From Acetobacteraceae bacterium (GTDB taxonomy: Bacteria; Pseudomonadota; Alphaproteobacteria; Acetobacterales; Acetobacteraceae), in the NCBI GenBank assembly GCA_965276755.1, contig OZ255625.1, positions 1,020,784-1,084,783 of the forward strand: a stretch of DNA of 64,000 nucleotides, read 5' to 3'. Below are positions 3,484 to 48,137 of the stretch, piece by piece. The notes below the pieces were generated by a model. The model had not been told where the DNA came from. It searched no databases and saw nothing but the letters and a program-made list of their open reading frames with translations. Numbering within the stretch: the first letter of the stretch is position 1; every line of letters starts with the position of its first letter. The position numbers and the translations under genes are program-made.

Positions 3484-3969
3484 ATGGCCAAGGAAAAGAA
3501 GAAGTCGAGCCTGATCTCGCACGGCATGGCTGCCCAGAACCGCAAGGCGCGGTTCGACTACACCATTAAGGAAACGCTGGAAGCCGGCCTCGTCCTGCGC
3601 GGCCCGGAGGTCAAATCCCTTCGCCACGGCCGCGCCACCATTACCGAAGCCTGGGCCGGCGAACGCGAGGGCGAAGTCTATCTCTTCAACGCCTACATCC
3701 CCGAATACCAGGCGGGCGTCCTCTCCCGCTTCGAACCCCGCGGCATGCGCAAGCTCCTGTTGCACAAGAAGGAAGCCGCCAAACTCCTGGGTGCGGTCGC
3801 CCGCAACGGCTACACGCTCGTGCCGCTTGACATCCATTTTAATGACAAGGGCATGGCCAAGGTCACGCTGGGGTTGGGGCAGGGGCGTAATAAGGCGGAC
3901 AAGCGGCATGCGATCGCGGATCGGGACTGGGCGCGGGACAAGGCTCGGTTGATGCGGGATCGGGGGTAA
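3484..3969 (+). CDS. smpB: SsrA-binding protein
   Basis: AQNRKARFDY, EAGLVLRGPEVKSLR, RKLLLHK, KADKRHAI motifs. Confidence 0.97.
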   Translation: MAKEKKKSSLISHGMAAQNRKARFDYTIKETLEAGLVLRGPEVKSLRHGRATITEAWAGEREGEVYLFNAYIPEYQAGVLSRFEPRGMRKLLLHKKEAAKLLGAVARNGYTLVPLDIHFNDKGMAKVTLGLGQGRNKADKRHAIADRDWARDKARLMRDRG

Positions 3970-4012
3970 GGAAGGAAGCAGTTCTTTTTTGAAAAAAAGA
4001 ACCAAAAACTTT
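3970..4012. repeat. Family B A/T-tract hairpin repeat, interrupted at its end by the IS1595 element
   Basis: GAAGGAAGCAGTTCTTTTTTGAAAAAAAGAACCAAAAACTTT; the usual continuation TGTCAGTT resumes at 8530. Confidence 0.85.
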
Positions 4013-4812
4013 GGTAATAACATACTTGACTCAGTATGGAGCCAAAGCTAATGCTTCCTTATAGATCAGACGATCTTCGCCTCCAAGGGCACTGGACCGA
4101 GAAGAGGCTGAGAAATGGAGCGTTAGTTCCATGCTGGGAGCCGCCTATGCCGCGCATATCGGATACAATCCTTGAAAGCATTTTTTACCTTTACCCGTCA
4201 CTTTCATCAGCGGAAAGTGGCGAGAGCTTTGGCGGGTGTGGTTTTTTAGTTACATTTCCGTTTGACAGGGCAAAACAGAATCATCTCTATGCAGTGACAA
4301 ATCGTCATGTAGTAGATAGTGGCGCTTTAACGTTCCGCTTATATACCAAAGACCTTGGGTTGCTCCCAATTGATAGCGATGAACGAAAATGGTTCAGGCA
4401 TCCCGATGGCGATGACCTTGCTATTCTTCTGATTGATTTTCCCTTGCATTTTAACTGTACGGCTATGACGTGGAGACTAATGCAAACTGTCACAAAGGAG
4501 TTGATACAGGAATACGACATCGGCGTAGGAGAAGAGGCATTTTCTGTCGGGCGCCTTGTTGACCATGACGGAAAGCAGCAGCATTCGCCTGTAGTCCGGT
4601 TCGGCAATATAGCTCAAATGCCTGGCGAAAAAATCAGACAAGATACCGGCTTTATGCAGGAGAGTTATCTTGTTGAGGGCCGATCCGTTGGCGGCTACAG
4701 CGGCTCTCCGGTTTTCATGTTTATACCCCCTTGGGCTGTGCGGCCTGGAAAGGCATCAGTGGAAAGTGCACATCATGGCCCTTGGTTTCTCGGCGTAAAC
4801 TGGGGCCACTTA

Positions 4813-6135
4813 GGGTTTGTCAGGAAATAGCTGAATCGGGTTGCGCTTGCGGGTAAGTGGGGGGATTCCCCGGTCACGGAGCGCTTTCGTAGCGTGCGTA
4901 CATGATTGATACCAGCGCCATTCGTGATCGTTTTGTTTCTCTTGCCCCGCATCTTGATGAACGAGGCCGTCGCTCCTTCGCTGCGGCCGAGGCGCGTTCG
5001 GCCGGGTATGGCGGGATCGCCGCTGTTGCCCGGGCGACCGGTATTGCACCGAGCACGATCGGCCGGGGCTTGGACGAGCTTGCTGGCGTCGCCGAGGTGC
5101 CAACTGACCGCAATCGCCGTCCCGGAGGCGGCCGCAAAGCGTTGACCGCGACAGACCCGGCACTGCTGGACGATTTGTTGGCGCTGGTCAGCCCGAGTGA
5201 ACGCGGCGACCCGATGTCGCCCCTGCGCTGGACCTGCAAAGGCCTACGCCGCCTGGCTGCTGAATTGCGCGCCATGGGGCATAAAATCAGCCACACCGTG
5301 GTTGGCGAATTGCTCCGCGGCCAGAAATTCAGCCTCCAGGCCAACAGCAAGACCCGCGAAGGTGACAGCCACCCGGATCGCGATGCGCAATTCGCCCACA
5401 TCAATACGAGCATCAGCCGCGCCCTGGCCGAGCAGCAGCCGGTGATATCCGTCGACACGAAGAAGAAGGAGCTTGTCGGCGACTTCAAGAATGCTGGCCG
5501 GGAATGGCGGCCACAGGGTGATCCCGAGGAGGTCCGCGTGCACGACTTCCTGATCAAGGAGATTGGTCGGGCGGTGCCATATGGAATCTACGATCTGGCC
5601 GCCAATGCCGGCTGGGTCAGCGTCGGCATCGATCACGACACTGCGCAATTCGCCGTGCAGACAATCCGCAACTGGTGGCACGGGGTCGGGTGCAAGCGCT
5701 ATCCGGGCGCGCGCCACCTGACGATCACCGCCGATGGTGGCGGCAGCAACGGCTCGCGCGTGCGCTTATGGAAGCGTGAACTGCAAAAGCTGTCCAATGA
5801 ACTCGGCATCAAGATCCGCGTCCACCACCTGCCGCCGGGCACCAGCAAATGGAACAAGATTGAGCATCGGCTGTTCTCATTCATCAGCATGAACTGGCGC
5901 GCCAAGCCGCTTGTCAGCTATCGCGTCATGGTGGACCTGATCAGCGCGACCACGACCAAGACCGGCCTGACCGTGCAGTGTGAACTCGACACCAGCACCT
6001 ACCCAAAAGGGATTGTGGTGAACGATCAGGAAATGTCCGAACTCAACATCCTACGCGACGAGTTCCACGGCGAATGGAACTACACGCTCCAACCTTGCAA
6101 CAAAACAGGTCGCGCGGTTAATTCCTGACAGACCC
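4813..6135 (+). mobile_element. ISAzo13-family insertion sequence
   Basis: Imperfect IRs GGGTTTGTCAGGAAATA / TAATTCCTGACAGACCC; TTA direct repeats at 4810-4812 and 6136-6138. Confidence 0.9.
4902..6128 (+). CDS. ISAzo13-family transposase
   Basis: LDERGRR, GDPMSPLRWTCK, ISVDTKKKELVG, ITADGGGSNG, TSKWNKIEHRLFS motifs; uninterrupted 408 aa. Confidence 0.95.
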   Translation: MIDTSAIRDRFVSLAPHLDERGRRSFAAAEARSAGYGGIAAVARATGIAPSTIGRGLDELAGVAEVPTDRNRRPGGGRKALTATDPALLDDLLALVSPSERGDPMSPLRWTCKGLRRLAAELRAMGHKISHTVVGELLRGQKFSLQANSKTREGDSHPDRDAQFAHINTSISRALAEQQPVISVDTKKKELVGDFKNAGREWRPQGDPEEVRVHDFLIKEIGRAVPYGIYDLAANAGWVSVGIDHDTAQFAVQTIRNWWHGVGCKRYPGARHLTITADGGGSNGSRVRLWKRELQKLSNELGIKIRVHHLPPGTSKWNKIEHRLFSFISMNWRAKPLVSYRVMVDLISATTTKTGLTVQCELDTSTYPKGIVVNDQEMSELNILRDEFHGEWNYTLQPCNKTGRAVNS

Positions 6136-6138
6136 TTA

Positions 6139-7166
6139 GAGTCTGACTCGAATCGGCATTGTAACAGGCTAAACCGTTGATCTCATTCGGGATCAAGATG
6201 ATACCGCCCCCAGCCTGCGCGACATCAGCTTGACGCTGGCGATGTAGAGCCAAGTCGTGGCGCTTGCGATGCTCGCCTCCACATCCTTTGCCAGGCGCCG
6301 GTTGCGACTCAACCAGGCAATCGTGCGTTCCACCACCCAGCGGCGCGGTAACAGGACAAAGCCTTTCGCCGCGTCGGAGCGCTTGACGATCTCGATCGTC
6401 CAATCGCCTTTGCCCATCAACGCGTTTTTCAGCTTGTCGCCGGCGTAACCACCATCGGCAAACACATGACGCAGCCAGGGATAGAGGTGGCGCACGCTTT
6501 CCAACAGCATCGGTGCGCCGTCGCGATCCTGCACGTCCGCGGGATGCACGATCATGCCCACGGGCAGACCAATGGTGTCGGTCAGAAGATGCCGTTTGCG
6601 GCCTTTGATCATCTTCTCGGCCGCATAGCCGCGCGGACCGCCGGACTCCGTGGTTTTGACCGATTGGCTGTCGATCACCCCGCCTGTCGGGCTCGCCTCG
6701 CGGCCGGCCGCCTCGCGCACAGCCATCAGCATGACATGATTGATCGTTTGCCAAAGCGCGTTGTCTCGCCAGGCGTAGAAGTAACGCTGCACGGTCGTGT
6801 AGGGCGGGAACCCCTTTGGCAACATGCGCCACTGGCAGCCCGACTGGATGATGTAGAAGATGGCATTGACGACCTCTCGCAGGTCATGCGCGCGCCGGCG
6901 CCCGCAGCTGGCGGGGGCAGGCATATGCGGCTCGATGAGCGTCCATTCCTGATCGGTGGTATCGCTTGCATAGCGCAGCCCATCTCGCTGATACTGCGGG
7001 CGCGTGATTTCAGTCCAGGCCATGTATTTCCCTCGGGTCTTCGCAAACGCGAGAGAATCGTAGCCGCTGAAATCACGCAACCCCTGTCTTGAAGCTAGAC
7101 GGCCGGAATCGGTAAACGGCTGAAAAGACTCGGGACTGCGTTGCAGAACCGTTCCGGGTCAGCCTC
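6139..7166 (-). mobile_element. IS5-family (IS1031-like group) insertion sequence
   Basis: Imperfect IRs GAGTCTGACTCGAATC / GTTCCGGGTCAGCCTC with GAG termini; flanked by TTA (6136-6138, 7167-7169). Confidence 0.88.
6193..7023 (-). CDS. IS5-family transposase
   Basis: RYASDTTDQEW, GCQWRMLP, IDSQSVK, KGRKRH, FADGGY, RWVVERTIAW motifs. Confidence 0.93.
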   Translation of the reverse strand: MAWTEITRPQYQRDGLRYASDTTDQEWTLIEPHMPAPASCGRRRAHDLREVVNAIFYIIQSGCQWRMLPKGFPPYTTVQRYFYAWRDNALWQTINHVMLMAVREAAGREASPTGGVIDSQSVKTTESGGPRGYAAEKMIKGRKRHLLTDTIGLPVGMIVHPADVQDRDGAPMLLESVRHLYPWLRHVFADGGYAGDKLKNALMGKGDWTIEIVKRSDAAKGFVLLPRRWVVERTIAWLSRNRRLAKDVEASIASATTWLYIASVKLMSRRLGAVSS

Positions 7167-41018: not shown

Positions 41019-42281
41019 CTACGGCGTGATCTCGAATACCGCCCCGAAACACGATCCCAGGCAGGTGATGGTCGTGCCATAAAGGATTCCTGTGCCGGTC
41101 AGGACCAGATTGGTCGCCGGGCCCCAGCCATCCAAGCCATTGAAGGCATGCAAAAGGGTTTGTTTCCATTTGCCGCCCCCCGCCGGCGAGAGCTTGAACA
41201 CGACTCCGCAGCCGCTCTGGCAACTCTGATCGGCGCCGTAATCGGTCGTGCCGTAGAGACTGCCTCTACTATCGAGCGTCATCCCACCCAGGGGATTCTG
41301 CCCGTCAGAGCCTCGGAAGCTGTAGATGGGCGTCTCACGCCAGCTGCCGTTCTTGTCAGGCGCAAGCTCGAAAACCGTGCCGCAGCCAATGGGCGAACAA
41401 CCCGCATCGCCGCCGCCGAATGTGGTGCCGTAAAGTTCGCCCGCGGCGCCTAGCGTTACGCCGGCATAAGGCAGATTGCCTTCGCTCAGAGTGAACTTGT
41501 GCAGTATGGTTTCTTTCCACTTGCCGCCAATTTGTGGCGAGAGCTCATAGACGATCCCATTATAGCCATTAATTCCACCGCCGCTCGTGGTGCCGTACAG
41601 ATTACCCGCTGCATCGAAGACCACGCCGCTCGTCGACTCGCAGCCATCCTCCCCGTTGCCGCCTGACGGCCCGAAATCGTGCAGCACGGTTTCCGTCCAA
41701 TGATTGTCCTGCGTCGGTGAAAGGCGGAACACGGTGCCGCATTGATAAGGCACGCCGTACGTCGTGCCGTAGAGATTGCCCGCACCATCGAAGACAAGGC
41801 CGGCCGACGGATAACGCCCATCCTCATTGTGGAACGCATGAAGGATGACGTGCCTGTAGCCACCGTGGCCATCGGGCAGAAGTTCGAACACCACGCCCAT
41901 GTCGCTCGGCTCGCCGCCGTAAAACGCCGTGCCGTAGAGATTCCCGCGGGCGTCAGCGATCAGGCCGGCGCTTGGATTGAGGCCGTCCGGATTGCGGTAG
42001 TTTAATTTTTCATTGAAATGATGAATGATTTTGTTGCTATAACCGCCGTGCTCATCAGGCGAGAGGCGAAACGCCGTGCCGAAGCCGTAATTTTGCTTGC
42101 CCCCATCCCTTGCCGTGCCGAACAGATTGCCGGAGCCGTCAAGCAGAAGATTGCCGAACAATCCGCCGCCTTCCGATGTGCCGTTAAAGGCATGCAGCAC
42201 TCTATATGCCGGCGCTGCGGCCGCCGGGAGTGACGCGCCGCCGAACGCCGCAAGAACGATCAGACCCAACGCTTTTCCCAT
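41019..42281 (-). CDS. Secreted Gloeo_Verruco (GloVer) repeat protein, second paralogue
   Basis: Signal peptide; about 7 DxxGNLYGTT...G.VFELSP units. Confidence 0.85.
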   Translation of the reverse strand: MGKALGLIVLAAFGGASLPAAAAPAYRVLHAFNGTSEGGGLFGNLLLDGSGNLFGTARDGGKQNYGFGTAFRLSPDEHGGYSNKIIHHFNEKLNYRNPDGLNPSAGLIADARGNLYGTAFYGGEPSDMGVVFELLPDGHGGYRHVILHAFHNEDGRYPSAGLVFDGAGNLYGTTYGVPYQCGTVFRLSPTQDNHWTETVLHDFGPSGGNGEDGCESTSGVVFDAAGNLYGTTSGGGINGYNGIVYELSPQIGGKWKETILHKFTLSEGNLPYAGVTLGAAGELYGTTFGGGDAGCSPIGCGTVFELAPDKNGSWRETPIYSFRGSDGQNPLGGMTLDSRGSLYGTTDYGADQSCQSGCGVVFKLSPAGGGKWKQTLLHAFNGLDGWGPATNLVLTGTGILYGTTITCLGSCFGAVFEITP

Positions 42282-42446
42282 GTTCAAACCCTCTTGCAAA
42301 GCTGCATTGCCTAGAGCCTGGCCGCGGCCTTCCGGACCGCCATTTATTTCGAAGCGCCAGGCAAATGGTTACCAGCTTGCAAACCATACGCCCCCGCCGC
42401 CACGACGCAGGGTGGCGCCCGCGCCCCGCTGTGCCATGTAAGGGCC

Positions 42447-42644: not shown

Positions 42645-43799
42645 ATGCTGAAAATCGGCCGCGGCGCGCACGCCCCGCCCTTCCTGGTCATGGACGTCAT
42701 CGCCGCGGCCAACCGCGCCCAGGCCGCCCTGCCCCTCGCCGCGCCGCACATCATTCGCATGGAGGTCGGCCAACCCGCCACCGGCGCGCCGTTCGGCGCC
42801 GTCCGCGCGGCCGAGGCCGCACTCTCGGCCATGCAAACGCTCGGCTACACCGAAGCGCTGGGCAGGCCCAGCCTGCGCGCGCGCATCGCAGCGCACTACC
42901 TGGATTGGTACGGCCAAACCGTCGACCCCAGCCGCATCGCGGTCACAACCGGCGCATCGGGCGCCTTTCCGCTGGCCTTCCTCGCCGCCTTCGATCGCGG
43001 CGACCGCGTGGCCCTGGCCGCCCCCTACTACCCGCCCTACGTCAACATCCTGCGCGCGCTCGGCCTGCAACCCGTCATCCTGCCCGCCAGCGAGGAGAAC
43101 CGCTTCCAGCCCACCCCCGCCCTGCTCGACCGCCTGGACCCGCCGCCCGCCGGCCTGATCATCGCCAGCCCCGCCAATCCCACCGGCGCCATGCTCCACC
43201 CCGGCGAGTTCGCCGCCCTGGCAGATTGGTGCACCGCAAACGGCGTGCGCATGATCAGCGACGAAATCTATCACGGCCTGACCTGGGGCACCGTCGCCTG
43301 CACCGCGGCAAACGTTCCCGGCGCCATCGTGATCAACAGTTTTTCGAAATACTTTTCCATGACCGGCTGGCGCGTCGGCTGGATGGTCATGCCCGAGGAT
43401 CTGGTCCGCCCCATCGAATGCCTGGCGCAAAACTTCTTCATCAGCGCACCGCACATCAGCCAGGTCGCGGCCGAGGCGGCGTTCGATTGCGCCTTCGAAC
43501 TCAACGAAAACCTGATCCGCACCCGCGGCTCGCGCGCCCATCTGTTGCGCCATTTGCCCGCAGCCGGTTTTCCCCACCTGATCCCGCCCGAAGGCGCTTT
43601 CTACATCTTCGCGGACATCTCCGAGCGCAGTCGCGACAGCCTGGCCTTCTGCGCGCGCATGCTGGCCGAAGTGGGTGTGGCCGCCAGCCCGGGCGTGGAT
43701 TTCGACGCCGAGCGCGGCGGGCATTTCGTGCGGTTCAGTTATTGCGGTCCGGAGATCGATATGCGCGATGCGGTGCAGCGTTTGGCGGGGTTTGGGTGA
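42645..43799 (+). CDS. Class I/II PLP-dependent aminotransferase
   Basis: ASPANPTG, ISDEIYHG, NSFSKYFSMTGWRVGW motifs. Confidence 0.93.
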   Translation: MLKIGRGAHAPPFLVMDVIAAANRAQAALPLAAPHIIRMEVGQPATGAPFGAVRAAEAALSAMQTLGYTEALGRPSLRARIAAHYLDWYGQTVDPSRIAVTTGASGAFPLAFLAAFDRGDRVALAAPYYPPYVNILRALGLQPVILPASEENRFQPTPALLDRLDPPPAGLIIASPANPTGAMLHPGEFAALADWCTANGVRMISDEIYHGLTWGTVACTAANVPGAIVINSFSKYFSMTGWRVGWMVMPEDLVRPIECLAQNFFISAPHISQVAAEAAFDCAFELNENLIRTRGSRAHLLRHLPAAGFPHLIPPEGAFYIFADISERSRDSLAFCARMLAEVGVAASPGVDFDAERGGHFVRFSYCGPEIDMRDAVQRLAGFG

Positions 43800-43830
43800 G
43801 GCGGCGCGGCAAGGAAAGGTGAGCAGAAGG

Positions 43831-43867
43831 TTGGGGGAGATGTGCCATCCCCCCCAAACCCCCCGTC
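43831..43867. repeat. Family A half
   Basis: TTGGGGGAGATGTGCCATCCCCCCCAAACCCCCCGTC. Confidence 0.9.
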
Positions 43868-43981
43868 ATTTTATTTAGGCCAACAGCCTCCACCTAAGTG
43901 GGAACGACAGGGTGTATCTGCGAGCCCACGCGAATCGACAATACTTACATAGGTCAAGCACATATTGACCGTTAAACGAAA

Positions 43982-45046
43982 TCAGAGAGCGCCCATTTGC
44001 CTAAACATATCGAGCATCCTAGCGACATTTCTAAGCTTCGACAATTGGTGAGGCTGTATGGGATCTGGCGCAAAGTGCATAACTTCATTCCTTATCTTAT
44101 TGACGTCGCTTAATTCCGAACAGAATGATGACCTATCAAGTTGGAGATTTATCCTTCCCCAGCTTTCCACGTGTTCAAATATCCGAACATAGTTTCCGAA
44201 GTTCAGGTCGGCGACCCCGACAACGTCTCTTCGAAGATTCACTTCTCCGCAAGCAATCCTAATCTCATCGAGCGTCAGCCTTGAACCAATCAATGAACGA
44301 AGATTATTCTCAATTTCGGCCAAAAGTAGAAACGGCGTGCTAATCAATTCAAATTCTAATGCGATATCGTCCGCAGTAACGATACCGGCGATTTTATTGT
44401 CTTTTGAGCGTGTGAGTACGTAATTATGCTCGCGAATAACCTGTATGGCAGTGAATAATGACGCTGATAGACTGAGTTCATGATGACTTTCCATATACGA
44501 CTGCACGTCTGGACCACTTTTGTTAACCGCAAGTCGCGCGCCAATGGATGCCCAACTTACGACACCCTTTACATCCCGTTCGGTCGTCATGACAGGAATT
44601 TGGGAAAAGTCTCTCACTAGCATCAGCGTCATTGCCTCTTTTAAAGTGGCGTTCGGCGCGACGCTAGTGGGCTTTATTGTTGCAGAGAGTATTCTTCCAA
44701 TCCGGAAAGAGGGGTCATCTGACACGGTCACCTCCGACGCATCCTGTTTGTCAGCAGCGCTAGAGGTCTGCGCTTGGCTATCATCAGTAGCATCGCCCGA
44801 TGAGGAATTCTCCTGGTGTTTAGAGATCAATTCGAAGGTGATAGGATTATCGATCCACGTATCCAGGTAGCTAGGCACAGTTCGTAGATCAGCCTCAGCC
44901 ATCTTGCCGTTGATGTGCTCAACATTCCATCTTGTACGCCTCATTACGTGGAACCAAGAAAGGAAGGTTCTAACGGTAACAGGAACCGCCGTACGACCCT
45001 CGACAAGCTCTTGCGCAACTTCGTCGAGTTGGGGAATATCGGACAT
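43982..45046 (-). CDS. CBS-pair + HEPN domain protein (AT-rich, probably acquired)
   Basis: CBS repeats (EAMTLMLVRDFSQIPV...GVVS; VLTRSKDNKIAGIVT..DI) and a C-terminal RNEVMH (Rx4H) motif preceded by LAEIENNLRSLI. Confidence 0.8.
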   Translation of the reverse strand: MSDIPQLDEVAQELVEGRTAVPVTVRTFLSWFHVMRRTRWNVEHINGKMAEADLRTVPSYLDTWIDNPITFELISKHQENSSSGDATDDSQAQTSSAADKQDASEVTVSDDPSFRIGRILSATIKPTSVAPNATLKEAMTLMLVRDFSQIPVMTTERDVKGVVSWASIGARLAVNKSGPDVQSYMESHHELSLSASLFTAIQVIREHNYVLTRSKDNKIAGIVTADDIALEFELISTPFLLLAEIENNLRSLIGSRLTLDEIRIACGEVNLRRDVVGVADLNFGNYVRIFEHVESWGRINLQLDRSSFCSELSDVNKIRNEVMHFAPDPIQPHQLSKLRNVARMLDMFRQMGAL

Positions 45047-45183
45047 ACAAACGACCTTACGAACTTTCTTGCTGTCAATCTTACGGGGAACAAGATAGAT
45101 TCACAAGAGTTGAAGCGACGACCTGCACTCAGACATGTCTACATTGCTGTAGCAAAAGAGGGAATGTTTATTTGCCCAACCCC

Positions 45184-46320
45184 TCACGCCCGCGCGTGCG
45201 CCACCCGCACATGCGCGCCCTCGGTCACGCGCGATGCACCATCGGTCACCACCGCCTCCCCATCCTGCACACCCGCGCTCACCACCGCGGTCGTCTCGGT
45301 CTGCTGGGCAATCGTAACCGTGCGCCGGGACGCAACGCCCTTGTCATCGACCACGAAAACAAAAGCACCGAGCGGTCCGCGCTGCACCGCCTGCGTGGGC
45401 ACGGTCAGCACATGGCCGTCCGTGCGCAGCAACAGGCGCACATTGACAAACGCGCCAGGCCAAAGTGTGAGCCCGGCATTTGGAAATACCGCCTTCAGCT
45501 TGATCGTGCCGGTCGTCTGATCGACCTCATTATCCAGCACCGAGACATAGCCGTGATCGATCGGTGCGGACGCGTCGCCACTCTGCGGCAGGGCCGTCAC
45601 CGCCGGCCGGCCCGCGCGCATGGCGGCGGCGACATCTGGCAGCGTTTGCTGAGGCAGCGTGAAAACCACGGTAATCGGCTGCAGCGTGGTCACCACGGTA
45701 ATTGGCGTCGTATCGGTCGAATGCACCAGATTGCCCGCATCGACCTGACGAATACCCGTGCGTCCCTGCACGGGGGCCACGATCGTCGTATAACTCAAAT
45801 TCGTGCGCGCGGTATCGATCTGCGCCTGGTCCTGGCGCACCAGCGCCTCGTCCTGCGCCACGGTCGCGCGCTGGGTATCGGCCTGCTGCGCTGTCGTATA
45901 CTGCGTCTTTGCCAATTTGGCATAGCGGGTCAGATCAACGCGCGCGTTCGCCAGCGTCGCCTCGTCCTGCGCCTTTTTCGCCACCGCCTGGTCATACGCC
46001 GCCTGATACGTGCGCGGATCGATCAGCGCGAGCACATCGCCCGTGCGCACGTCCTGGCCTTCGTGGAATTTCACCGCAATCAGCGGGCCATCGACCATCG
46101 GGCGGATATTGACCGTGTTCAGCGCCTGCACCGTGCCGATGCCATCAACGGTCACCGGCACATCGGCATACGCTGCATGCGCGGTCACCACCGGCACCAC
46201 TGCCTGCGCCGCGGCCGCATCATGGGCCGCAGTCTGCGCCGCCTTCTGCCCGCTGCGATACCAGACCAGCACGCCAATGATCGCCAGGCCTGCGATGACG
46301 AAAAGCAGAAAGCGCCTCAT
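45184..46320 (-). CDS. RND efflux periplasmic adaptor (MdtA-like)
   Basis: GIGTVQA, EGQDVRTGDVLA.IDPR, DNEVDQTTGT, LWPGAFV motifs. Confidence 0.92.
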   Translation of the reverse strand: MRRFLLFVIAGLAIIGVLVWYRSGQKAAQTAAHDAAAAQAVVPVVTAHAAYADVPVTVDGIGTVQALNTVNIRPMVDGPLIAVKFHEGQDVRTGDVLALIDPRTYQAAYDQAVAKKAQDEATLANARVDLTRYAKLAKTQYTTAQQADTQRATVAQDEALVRQDQAQIDTARTNLSYTTIVAPVQGRTGIRQVDAGNLVHSTDTTPITVVTTLQPITVVFTLPQQTLPDVAAAMRAGRPAVTALPQSGDASAPIDHGYVSVLDNEVDQTTGTIKLKAVFPNAGLTLWPGAFVNVRLLLRTDGHVLTVPTQAVQRGPLGAFVFVVDDKGVASRRTVTIAQQTETTAVVSAGVQDGEAVVTDGASRVTEGAHVRVAHARA

Positions 46321-46351
46321 GACTGCCCGGCCTGGGAGTAAAAAGCAAAGA

Positions 46352-46452
46352 CTGGGGGGAATGTGCCATTCCCCCCAGACCCCCCGTCATCAGTTGAGAC
46401 GAGATCTTGAAAATAGACGGGGGGTCTGGGGGGGAAGGCACATCTCCCCCAG
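46352..46452. repeat. Family A inverted doublet
   Basis: Linker ATCAGTTGAGACGAGATCTTGAAAATA; lies between co-oriented efflux genes. Confidence 0.92.
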
Positions 46453-46468
46453 CTTTGTCTTGCCCTGC

Positions 46469-47926
46469 TCATGACCGCGCCTCCGGCGCACCCGCGGGCA
46501 CGGACCATCCGCCGCCCAGCGCCTTGTAGAGATTCACCAGCGAGAGAAAGCGCGTCACCCGCACCTGGGCCAAAGCGTCCTGATCGTTGAACAGAGTCGT
46601 CTCCGTGTTCAGCACGGTCACGATATCGACCGTGCCGGCCAGCAATTGCGCGCGCGCAATGGTCGCCGATTGCTGGGCGGTGCGCACCGCCTCGGCCTCC
46701 AGCGCCTCCTGATCGGCGGCAAAGCTGGTGGCCGTCAGCCCGGTCTCCACATCGCTCAACGCCTGGATGACCGCCTTGGTATAATCGGCCGCCAGCTCTG
46801 CAAAGCGCCCCTTCGCCTCGCCCAGCGTGCCCGATTTCAGCCCATTGTCGAAGATCGTCTGCGTCAACTGGCTGGCAAGGCTGGCAATCACCGTGCCTGG
46901 CCCGGTAATCGTGGAAAGTGCGAGGCTGGACAACCCCCCCGAGGCGGTCAGCGTCAGGCTGGGGAAGAAGGCGGCATAATCCTGGCGCACAGTCTGGTTC
47001 TGCCCAATCAGCTGCGCCTCGGCGTAGGCCACATCGGGCCGGCGGCGCAGGATGGTGGCGGGCAGGCCGGGTGCCACGGCAGGCAGGCGCAGATCGACCA
47101 GGTGCACTTCGCCCAAGGCAATGCGTTCGGGCGCCTCGCCCACCAGGATCGCCAGCGCGATCACCTCCTGGCGGAACTGGCTTTCCAGTGCCGGCAAATT
47201 GGCGCGCTCGCCGGCCACCAGCGCCTCCTGCTGGCTGACATCGAGCGCATCGGCCGTGCCCACGCTCAGGCGCGCACGAAAGGCGTCCAACACGGCGGCG
47301 GCATCGTGCAGATTGTTCTGGGCGATGCGCAGCCGGTCCCGGTAGCCCAGCGCCTGAAAATAGGTGGTGGCGATCGAGGAGATGGTGGTCAGCCACACCG
47401 TCTGCGCGTCGTAGCGCGAGCCGCGCGCCAGGGCCACGGCGGCGCGGTAGGCGTCCAAATTCATGCCCCAGAAATCGACCTCGTAGGAGGCGTTGAGCTC
47501 GGCTGTGTAGAGGCGTGTCTCGGTGTAGCGGTGCCCGCCTTGCAGACCGGTGAGAAATTGCGCCGACTGGCCGCTGGCGCGGCTGCCCGTGCCGGTGCGC
47601 TGCCAGCTCTGGTTGCCGGTGCCGGTCACGCCCGGCAGCAGCGGGCTGCCGGCCACGCGCGCGGCCTGGTCGGCCTGCACCACGCGCGCGGCGGCCGCAC
47701 GCACGTCCGGACTGCCGATACGCGCCAGCTCGATCAGACGGTCGAGCTCGGGGGCCTTAAAGCCGCGCCACCACGCGATGTCGGGCGGGGCGGCCGGCGG
47801 CTGGGCGGGCGAGGAGTAGGCCAGCGGCACATCCAACGCAGGCCGGTGATAGTGCGGGCCGACGCCGCATCCAGCCAGGCTTGTGCAGGCAAGGCACCCC
47901 GCCAGCAGGGCGCGGGGGGTGGTCAT
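46469..47926 (-). CDS. NodT/OprM-family outer-membrane efflux lipoprotein
   Basis: Lipobox LAGC, WWRGF, YEVDFWG, RRPDV, LYKALGGGW motifs. Confidence 0.93.
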   Translation of the reverse strand: MTTPRALLAGCLACTSLAGCGVGPHYHRPALDVPLAYSSPAQPPAAPPDIAWWRGFKAPELDRLIELARIGSPDVRAAAARVVQADQAARVAGSPLLPGVTGTGNQSWQRTGTGSRASGQSAQFLTGLQGGHRYTETRLYTAELNASYEVDFWGMNLDAYRAAVALARGSRYDAQTVWLTTISSIATTYFQALGYRDRLRIAQNNLHDAAAVLDAFRARLSVGTADALDVSQQEALVAGERANLPALESQFRQEVIALAILVGEAPERIALGEVHLVDLRLPAVAPGLPATILRRRPDVAYAEAQLIGQNQTVRQDYAAFFPSLTLTASGGLSSLALSTITGPGTVIASLASQLTQTIFDNGLKSGTLGEAKGRFAELAADYTKAVIQALSDVETGLTATSFAADQEALEAEAVRTAQQSATIARAQLLAGTVDIVTVLNTETTLFNDQDALAQVRVTRFLSLVNLYKALGGGWSVPAGAPEARS

Positions 47927-47996
47927 GTGGGCGGCATGTCTGGCGGCGGTTCCGTGACGGGCAGTAGTCCAGATGGACTTGCCGCAGGAAGAAAGT

Positions 47997-48137
47997 AAAG
48001 GGAAGGCCTTCTTTTTTGAAAAAAAGAAGCAAAAAACTTTTGTCACTTTATGTCACGGCTCCTGTTTGAAGTGTCTCGTGGTCCAAACAGATAAAAGTCT
48101 TTTTGCTTCTTTTTCTTCAGAAAAAGAAGAACCTTGC
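47997..48137. repeat. Inverted pair of family B repeats
   Basis: CTTCTTTTTTGAAAAAAAGAAGCAAAAAACTTTTGTC ... ATAAAAGTCTTTTTGCTTCTTTTTCTTCAGAAAAAGAAG. Confidence 0.87.

Follow-up and report, generated by a model that had tools for sequence, protein, structure and literature searches.

A DS-11 family CBS-HEPN anti-phage gene as a low-GC single-gene islet at a synteny breakpoint of a high-GC genome

The DNA considered here, referred to below as the window, is a stretch of 64,000 nucleotides from contig OZ255625.1 of an Acetobacteraceae bacterium, and our subject is a single gene in it that belongs to the DS-11 family of anti-phage proteins. The interval 43870-45180 of the window contains only one long open reading frame (ORF), which begins with an ATG codon and encodes a protein of 354 amino acids (Table 1). 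The protein matches the NCBIfam equivalog profile NF053863 ("DS11_antiphage") with a score of 352.5 bits against a cutoff of 260 (E 1.7e-105), residues 26-345 being aligned to profile positions 1-305 of 305, and no other gene in the genome scores above this cutoff. BLASTP comparison with the Escherichia coli DS-11 protein, WP_000257686.1, aligned residues 6-352 with residues 8-363 of the reference at 38% identity and 58% positives (E 2e-83). The reference sequence (365 amino acids) was recovered from the chromosome of E. coli KE47 and is identical to the one given in the supplement of the paper that reported DS-11. A first-pass annotation, made from the letters of the sequence alone, had described an AT-rich gene of 354 codons at this place, and the composition bears this out: the GC content is 47.4% in the gene and 47.2% in the islet that houses it, against 63.6% in the remaining window. 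If the genome were annotated by NCBI today, the gene would be named "CBS domain-containing anti-phage protein".

Table 1. Positions in the window of the DS-11 islet, its gene, the parts of the encoded protein and the bordering repeat
Feature	Position	Strand	Evidence
Low-GC single-gene islet, ~1.3 kb	43882..45183		GC contrast and gap in homology to sister genome G003; not in four same-genus genomes
DS-11 family gene (CBS domain-containing anti-phage protein), 354 aa	43982..45046	-	NCBIfam NF053863 and BLASTP to WP_000257686.1
N-terminal domain, aa 1-78 (about 75 aa; three helices and a beta-hairpin)	44813..45046	-	AlphaFold2
Acidic Ser/Thr-rich disordered linker, aa 79-111	44714..44812	-	Composition and pLDDT
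CBS pair (Bateman module), about aa 112-227	44366..44713	-	Pfam and Foldseek
F147, equivalent of E. coli Y157	44606-44608	-	Alignment to WP_000257686.1
C-terminal all-helical domain, about aa 225-354, Swt1-like HEPN	43985..44365	-	Model, family-level Pfam and motif
HEPN catalytic motif R319-N-E-V-M-H324	44075-44092	-	Invariance and alignment to R330/H335
Repeat A (dispersed, palindromic, REP-like), at the border of the islet; outside the system	43827..43872		Repeat analysis

DS-11 (E. coli WP_000257686.1, working identifier IMPD) was reported by DeWeirdt et al. in the DefensePredictor study (Science 2026, PMC13092281; bioRxiv January 2025), where it is modelled as a single-gene, nucleotide-sensing CBS-HEPN RNase that acts as a defence effector. 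In E. coli MG1655, defence is abolished by the substitutions R330A and H335A in the HEPN domain and by Y157A in the CBS domain; the AlphaFold3 model is dimeric and contains two ATP molecules, and Y157 is predicted to contact the adenine (PMC13092281). When the two proteins are aligned, R330 and H335 fall on R319 and H324 of the protein studied here and Y157 falls on F147, so that the three positions are conserved, the third as an aromatic residue. The interpretation offered by the first-pass annotation, a one-gene CBS-HEPN RNase that senses nucleotides and serves in defence, equals the published DS-11 model. Its implied novelty does not survive, since the gene is assigned to a system that has already been described: as a system, there is nothing new at this locus.

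An AlphaFold2 model of the whole protein, built on 37 homologues (mean predicted local distance difference test score, pLDDT, 85.1), is composed of four parts, namely an N-terminal alpha/beta domain, a disordered linker, a CBS pair and an all-helical C-terminal domain. The linker had been called acidic from the outset, and it indeed contains nine Asp or Glu residues against one Lys over residues 79-111. Its pLDDT is below 50 over residues 79-109, and both its length and its sequence vary across the family alignment. The CBS pair, also predicted at first sight, was detected by Pfam PF00571 in two stretches (E 2.6e-12; 47.3 bits against a gathering score of 24). A Foldseek search of the PDB with the whole chain returned 347 matches at E <=0.001, the top ones of which are all CBS pairs; the best of them reach E ~1e-7 with template modelling (TM) scores to the target of 0.7-0.8, and many are structures with bound AMP, ATP, S-adenosylmethionine (SAM) or c-di-AMP. 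This whole-chain search is swamped by CBS pairs and is uninformative on the other domains.

As can be seen from the alignment of 37 sequences, the canonical ribose-binding motif G-h-h-T-x-x-D is kept only by the second CBS domain (CBS2), in the form G221-I-V-T224-A-D-D227 with G221, T224 and D227 invariant; the first one (CBS1) has G161-V-V-S-W-A-S. The retention of the motif in CBS2 alone suggests that there may be one functional nucleotide site per protomer, a view that draws on general knowledge of CBS domains and would fit the two ATP molecules per dimer in the published prediction. At the position of F147, about two-thirds of the locus homologues have Phe and about one-third have Tyr, the three exceptions being Leu, Val and Ile. 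Judging by this column, the conserved feature is the aromatic ring and not the hydroxyl.

The Rx4H motif recognised at first reading is R319-N-E-V-M-H324. Its residues R319, N320 and H324 are invariant in the 37 sequences, N320 being the polar residue that follows the Arg in HEPN motifs of the R-x4-6-H type, and both the Arg and the His are kept in every locus homologue in which the region is aligned. Modelled in isolation, the C-terminal domain that carries the motif forms six helices with a pLDDT of 90.4 and a predicted TM score (pTM) of 0.85. Pfam searches performed with 38 family members one by one gave matches to PF18731 (HEPN_Swt1) for 18 of them, with a best E of 7.3e-5; RiboL-PSP (6), DUF4145 (4), Abi_2 (2), STY4199 (2) and Apea (1) were matched by fewer members, and all of these are HEPN-type families. 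For the E. coli protein, HHpred in the hands of the authors gives HEPN_Swt1 at a probability of 0.98 (PMC13092281).

The N-terminal domain had been noted as an uncharacterised region of about 75 residues, and it still answers to that description. It is folded in the model (residues 1-78, pLDDT ~90), with helices at 5-15, 25-30 and 39-51 and strands at 54-57 and 68-73, and the residues W31, R36, R37, T56 and P58 do not vary among 49 sequences. No consistent family emerged from a Pfam scan of this domain in 49 members, a sequence-profile search of the PDB gave only chance-level matches, and the domain carries no annotation in the accessible part of the domain table of the DS-11 paper (PMC13092281). 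When a profile of the N-terminal domain by itself was used in an exhaustive search, 1380 cluster representatives were retrieved at E <=0.001. Among the best 150 of these 1380, the full-length proteins have the architecture N-CBS-HEPN or, in 17 cases, a tandem N-N-CBS-HEPN architecture (P0121-P0144; P0121, for example, has 476 amino acids), and most of the short matches resemble truncated metagenomic genes. There are two exceptions, in which a tandem N pair is combined with PLD-like MIT_C (P0128, E 1.3e-44) or with TerB (P0265, E 8e-15) in place of CBS-HEPN. Between P0128 and a CBS-HEPN protein, the N-N region shows 50% identity, and an architecture census based on P0128 yielded eight matches, with the MIT_C variant as a singleton. 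The presence of the domain on other partners weakly suggests that it is a separable module. It is possible, though on the whole doubtful, that it is a portable module for sensing or targeting, which sets what DS-11 responds to or what it cleaves; if so, DS-11 would be a three-module sensor-gate-effector rather than a two-domain protein.

The gene is of foreign origin, and its distribution is patchy. Among 61 related genomes, two contain an intact DS-11 member (the present genome and one other) and one contains a copy split by an insertion sequence (IS); a member is absent from all four same-genus genomes. The split copy (L021, G021:C32, 3622-6520), found in a family-level relative, consists of a HEPN half (3622-4104) and an N-domain/CBS half (5696-6520), between which lies an IS with a gene for a 464-residue DDE transposase (4237-5631). 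This copy is naturally inactivated. In all, 503 DS-11 loci were confirmed in species representatives; they are spread over numerous bacterial phyla, and a halobacterial metagenome-assembled genome gave one match. The AT-rich composition recurs in the family: in 49 of the 54 loci with long flanks (L022-L100), the GC content of the DS-11 gene is more than 3 points lower than that of its flanks (mean 12, up to 33), and this is seen across hosts whose GC content ranges from 51% to 71%. Searches by tblastn found no DS-11 match in phage records and matches in seven records of a plasmid collection, a Rhizobium plasmid included. A chromosomal DS-11 gene appears among these plasmid matches because the chromosome of E. 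coli KE47 (NZ_CP141089.1, 4.9 Mb; L102/L103) is filed in that collection as "plasmid unnamed1". The KE47 gene belongs to a tRNA-Ile island and has next to it a truncated tyrosine recombinase as well as a remnant of IS3.

We therefore consider it very probable that the gene is a canonical DS-11 member, that is, a single-protein anti-phage system, acquired horizontally as a one-gene islet. By analogy with the E. coli orthologue, whose protection against phages was demonstrated in MG1655, it would be expected to act in the same way in its present host. A number of observations weigh against this reading and have to be set beside it. A PADLOC v2 scan of the protein gave no model and no match (PADLOC-DB 2023 predates DS-11); a PHROGs scan gave no match either. 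With Phe at the position of Y157, a function of the Tyr hydroxyl, if there is one, would be lost here. The C-terminal domain of the present protein has no Pfam match of its own at E <=1, and its isolated model retrieved no PDB match by Foldseek at E <=0.001 (best E 1.0). Finally, the genes next to it are housekeeping and efflux genes and not defence genes, and promoter- or terminator-like signals around the islet, an upstream promoter among them, do not exceed chance.

Two of these points deserve comment. The matches of the C-terminal domain with the highest TM scores, none of them significant, are AbiF (8vz6; E 1.0, TMq 0.55), Csm6 (0.45) and AbiA (0.40), and a sequence-profile search of the PDB with this domain gave chance-level matches only. 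The HEPN fold expected by the first-pass annotation is thus weakly supported by the structure search: the all-helical model is confident and HEPN proteins come out on top by TM score, but Foldseek gives no significant match. We accept that the C-terminal domain is HEPN because the RNxxxH motif is invariant, family members match HEPN families in Pfam, the authors' HHpred search points the same way and the Arg and His mutants have been published; by itself, our fold search would not suffice. As for the surroundings, the present copy lies outside any defence island, so that the island location looked for at the outset is not found here. Such a bare context fits the argument of the DefensePredictor study that many defence genes are located outside islands.

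The same surroundings, an aminotransferase gene and efflux genes, are among the facts that would favour a physiological role, in which a CBS-gated RNase tunes RNA stability to the energy or nucleotide state of the cell and has no anti-phage role in its host. Such a role was suggested for CBS-HEPN fusions by Anantharaman et al. 2013 (PMC3710099), and most neighbours of the DS-11 homologues are not recognisable as defence genes. Yet a minority of homologues do have defence genes nearby (type I and IIG restriction-modification (R-M), AbiU, Mokosh MkoA, Dpd, PsyrT, BrxH and Zorya-like genes), some directly adjoining R-M, AbiU, Mokosh or Dpd genes. When PADLOC was run on near and far neighbours of the homologues (148 of each), defence genes were reported in both sets, the output consisting of redundant models and not of proteins. 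Phage defence by the E. coli orthologue requires the same residues that are conserved here, and a gene that is present in two of 61 relatives, is foreign in composition and is sometimes disrupted by an IS is unlike a housekeeping regulator. We regard a purely physiological regulator as improbable.

The stand-alone status of the gene was assessed in the islet and in 75 homologous loci from named genomes, in which neighbour families were counted at >=90 amino acids. No neighbour family recurs, the commonest one being present in four of the 75 loci, and no small ORF or stretch of non-coding flank DNA was found to be conserved across them. In the islet itself, the two intergenic stubs contain no ORF of >30 amino acids, the interval 43800-45300 is free of tandem repeats, and Rfam has no match. 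Since neither the islet nor the 75 loci reveal a recurring neighbour, small ORF, repeat or RNA, the one-gene reading is sound, and the early remark that no partner or antitoxin gene is adjacent extends to the whole family.

Two known types of module were considered for the locus and rejected. A HEPN-MNT toxin-antitoxin pair was set aside on the grounds that no ORF of >30 amino acids adjoins the gene in the islet and that no MNT-type neighbour recurs in the 75 loci; an AbiF/ToxIN-like type III toxin-antitoxin system was set aside for want of a tandem-repeat array, an Rfam match and conserved flank DNA.

More generally, the protein could act as toxin in a toxin-antitoxin or addiction module whose antitoxin is an overlooked small protein or non-coding RNA (ncRNA), or is intramolecular, and whose function is mainly selfish maintenance. 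HEPN domains are common as toxins of this kind (PMC3710099), and AbiF, the best though non-significant structural match, is bound to an ncRNA antitoxin in its structure; the searches of the islet and of the 75 loci just described speak against such an element, as does the E. coli gene, which is tolerated alone on a plasmid. We judge this explanation to be quite unlikely. Least likely of all is a silent or inactive remnant, whose ORF looks intact and yet is unexpressed or non-functional in the present genome: the chance-level promoter- and terminator-like signals and the IS-disrupted relative, which marks the family as dispensable, would agree with it, but the ORF has its full length, and the 37 invariant and 41 near-invariant positions of the family (scored on the present sequence) are all intact, those of the catalytic and ligand sites included. 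There is also a plausible AAGG ribosome-binding site ~9 nt 5' of the ATG, and read-through transcription is possible, as the gene is codirectional with the upstream efflux genes and lies 137 bp behind them.

The islet is flanked on one side by a gene for a pyridoxal phosphate (PLP)-dependent aminotransferase (42645-43799) and on the other by genes for an MdtA/MuxA-type efflux adaptor (45184-46320) and a NodT-type outer-membrane factor (46469-48046). Homology to the sister genome G003 ends at the stop codon of the aminotransferase gene (43799) and restarts at that of the efflux-adaptor gene (45184). In G003, the two flanks are found on different contigs (L017, L018), where their neighbours are genes for an S9 peptidase and a gamma-glutamyltranspeptidase. 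An orthologue of the latter (91% identity) is located ~750 kb away in the present genome (C1:315296-316003); the S9 peptidase has no orthologue in the present genome (best match 35%). Since the flanks are apart in G003 and have other neighbours there, the islet lies at a rearrangement junction. The gene had been described as wedged between core genes, which is correct for the present genome; in G003, the two flank genes are not neighbours.

A simple insertion between two conserved neighbours was considered and rejected in view of the separate contexts of the flanks in G003; an empty site was looked for in the same-genus genomes, and none was found. Terminal inverted repeats, a target-site duplication and mobility genes were looked for around the islet, and none was found to bracket it.

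Repeat A, beside which the gene had been placed at first reading, is a repetitive extragenic palindromic (REP)-like element with the core GGGGGnATGTGCCATnCCCCC, then ACCCCCCGTCAT. In addition to the single unit at the edge of the islet, an inverted pair of units is located between the adaptor and outer-membrane-factor genes (46343-46461). The core pattern has 789 strand-hits in the genome, which corresponds to ~400 copies; BLAST finds dozens of copies in G000 and G003, and in G003 the repeat coincides with contig ends. The proximity is therefore real but incidental, since a repeat with ~400 copies genome-wide is not specific to the DS-11 gene.

Two further features of the neighbourhood can be mentioned. 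The efflux locus (45184-48046, minus strand) consists of the gene for the NodT-type outer-membrane factor followed by that for the MdtA/MuxA-type adaptor of the resistance-nodulation-division (RND) class, downstream of which there is no gene for an RND permease; the place at which one would expect mdtB/C-like genes is taken by the DS-11 islet, and G003 is likewise without a permease gene at that place. Beyond the aminotransferase gene, 41019-42299 (minus strand) encodes a 426-residue secreted protein of GloVer (Gloeo_Verruco) choice-of-anchor tandem repeats, with a GC content of ~60%, slightly below that of its surroundings.

If the gene acts as a DS-11 system, its mechanism could be pictured as follows. 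The protein would dimerise through the CBS pair, the HEPN domain or both. One adenine-nucleotide site per protomer, lined by the aromatic ring of F147 and by the ribose-binding G-I-V-T-x-x-D of CBS2, would then read an adenine derivative that depends on infection, or a change in its level. This signal would activate a composite HEPN active site to which each protomer may contribute R319 and H324, and the active HEPN domain would cleave RNA and halt phage production, probably at a cost to the growth of the host. The identity of the ligand, the switching of the dimer, the RNA target and the abortive outcome are those parts of the scheme that we infer.

The locus thus presents DS-11 as a bare one-gene islet, without mobility genes, at a synteny breakpoint of a high-GC genome and outside a defence island. 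The published picture of DS-11 can be refined in three respects: the residue predicted to contact the adenine is an aromatic that is usually Phe, only CBS2 has a canonical ribose-binding motif, and the genes are AT-rich relative to their flanks in 49 of 54 loci. A further addition concerns the N-terminal domain: it is conserved, is duplicated in some proteins and has now and then been swapped.

The closest known system is E. coli DS-11 itself. Both proteins are four-part single polypeptides of similar length (354 amino acids here and 365 in E. coli) that align end to end at 38% identity; both have the catalytic Arg and His and an aromatic residue at the position of Y157, and both are encoded by a single gene in accessory or foreign DNA. 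They differ in their hosts, E. coli in one case and an organism with an alphaproteobacterial-type high-GC genome in the other, and in the aromatic residue, which is Tyr157 in E. coli and Phe, the family majority, here. The genomic settings are also different: the E. coli gene is part of a tRNA-Ile island with an integrase and IS remnants, whereas the present one, with no mobility genes around it, makes up an islet of 1.3 kb at a synteny breakpoint.

CBS-HEPN fusions of the Abi2/Swt1 clade were described by Anantharaman et al. 2013 (PMC3710099), examples being alr3009, which combines CBS and HD domains, and a protein of Pelobacter propionicus; on computational grounds, the authors proposed that nucleotide sensing controls RNA degradation in such fusions. 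The present protein resembles them in joining a CBS sensor to a catalytically competent Swt1-like HEPN domain, and the same logic is proposed for it. Unlike it, some of the fusions have an additional HD phosphohydrolase domain, the N-terminal domain is not mentioned for them, and they are predictions without a phenotype.

AbiF/AbiD (Abi_2) and Csm6 share with the present protein the R-x4-6-H active site and are the best structural neighbours of its C-terminal domain, at non-significant E values (E >=1). These HEPN enzymes dimerise, and the RNase of Csm6 is gated by an adenine-containing ligand. AbiF is controlled by an ncRNA antitoxin, in contrast to the DS-11 islet, in which none was found. 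Csm6 depends on type III CRISPR and senses cyclic oligoadenylate via a CARF domain and not, as would the present protein, by means of a CBS pair.

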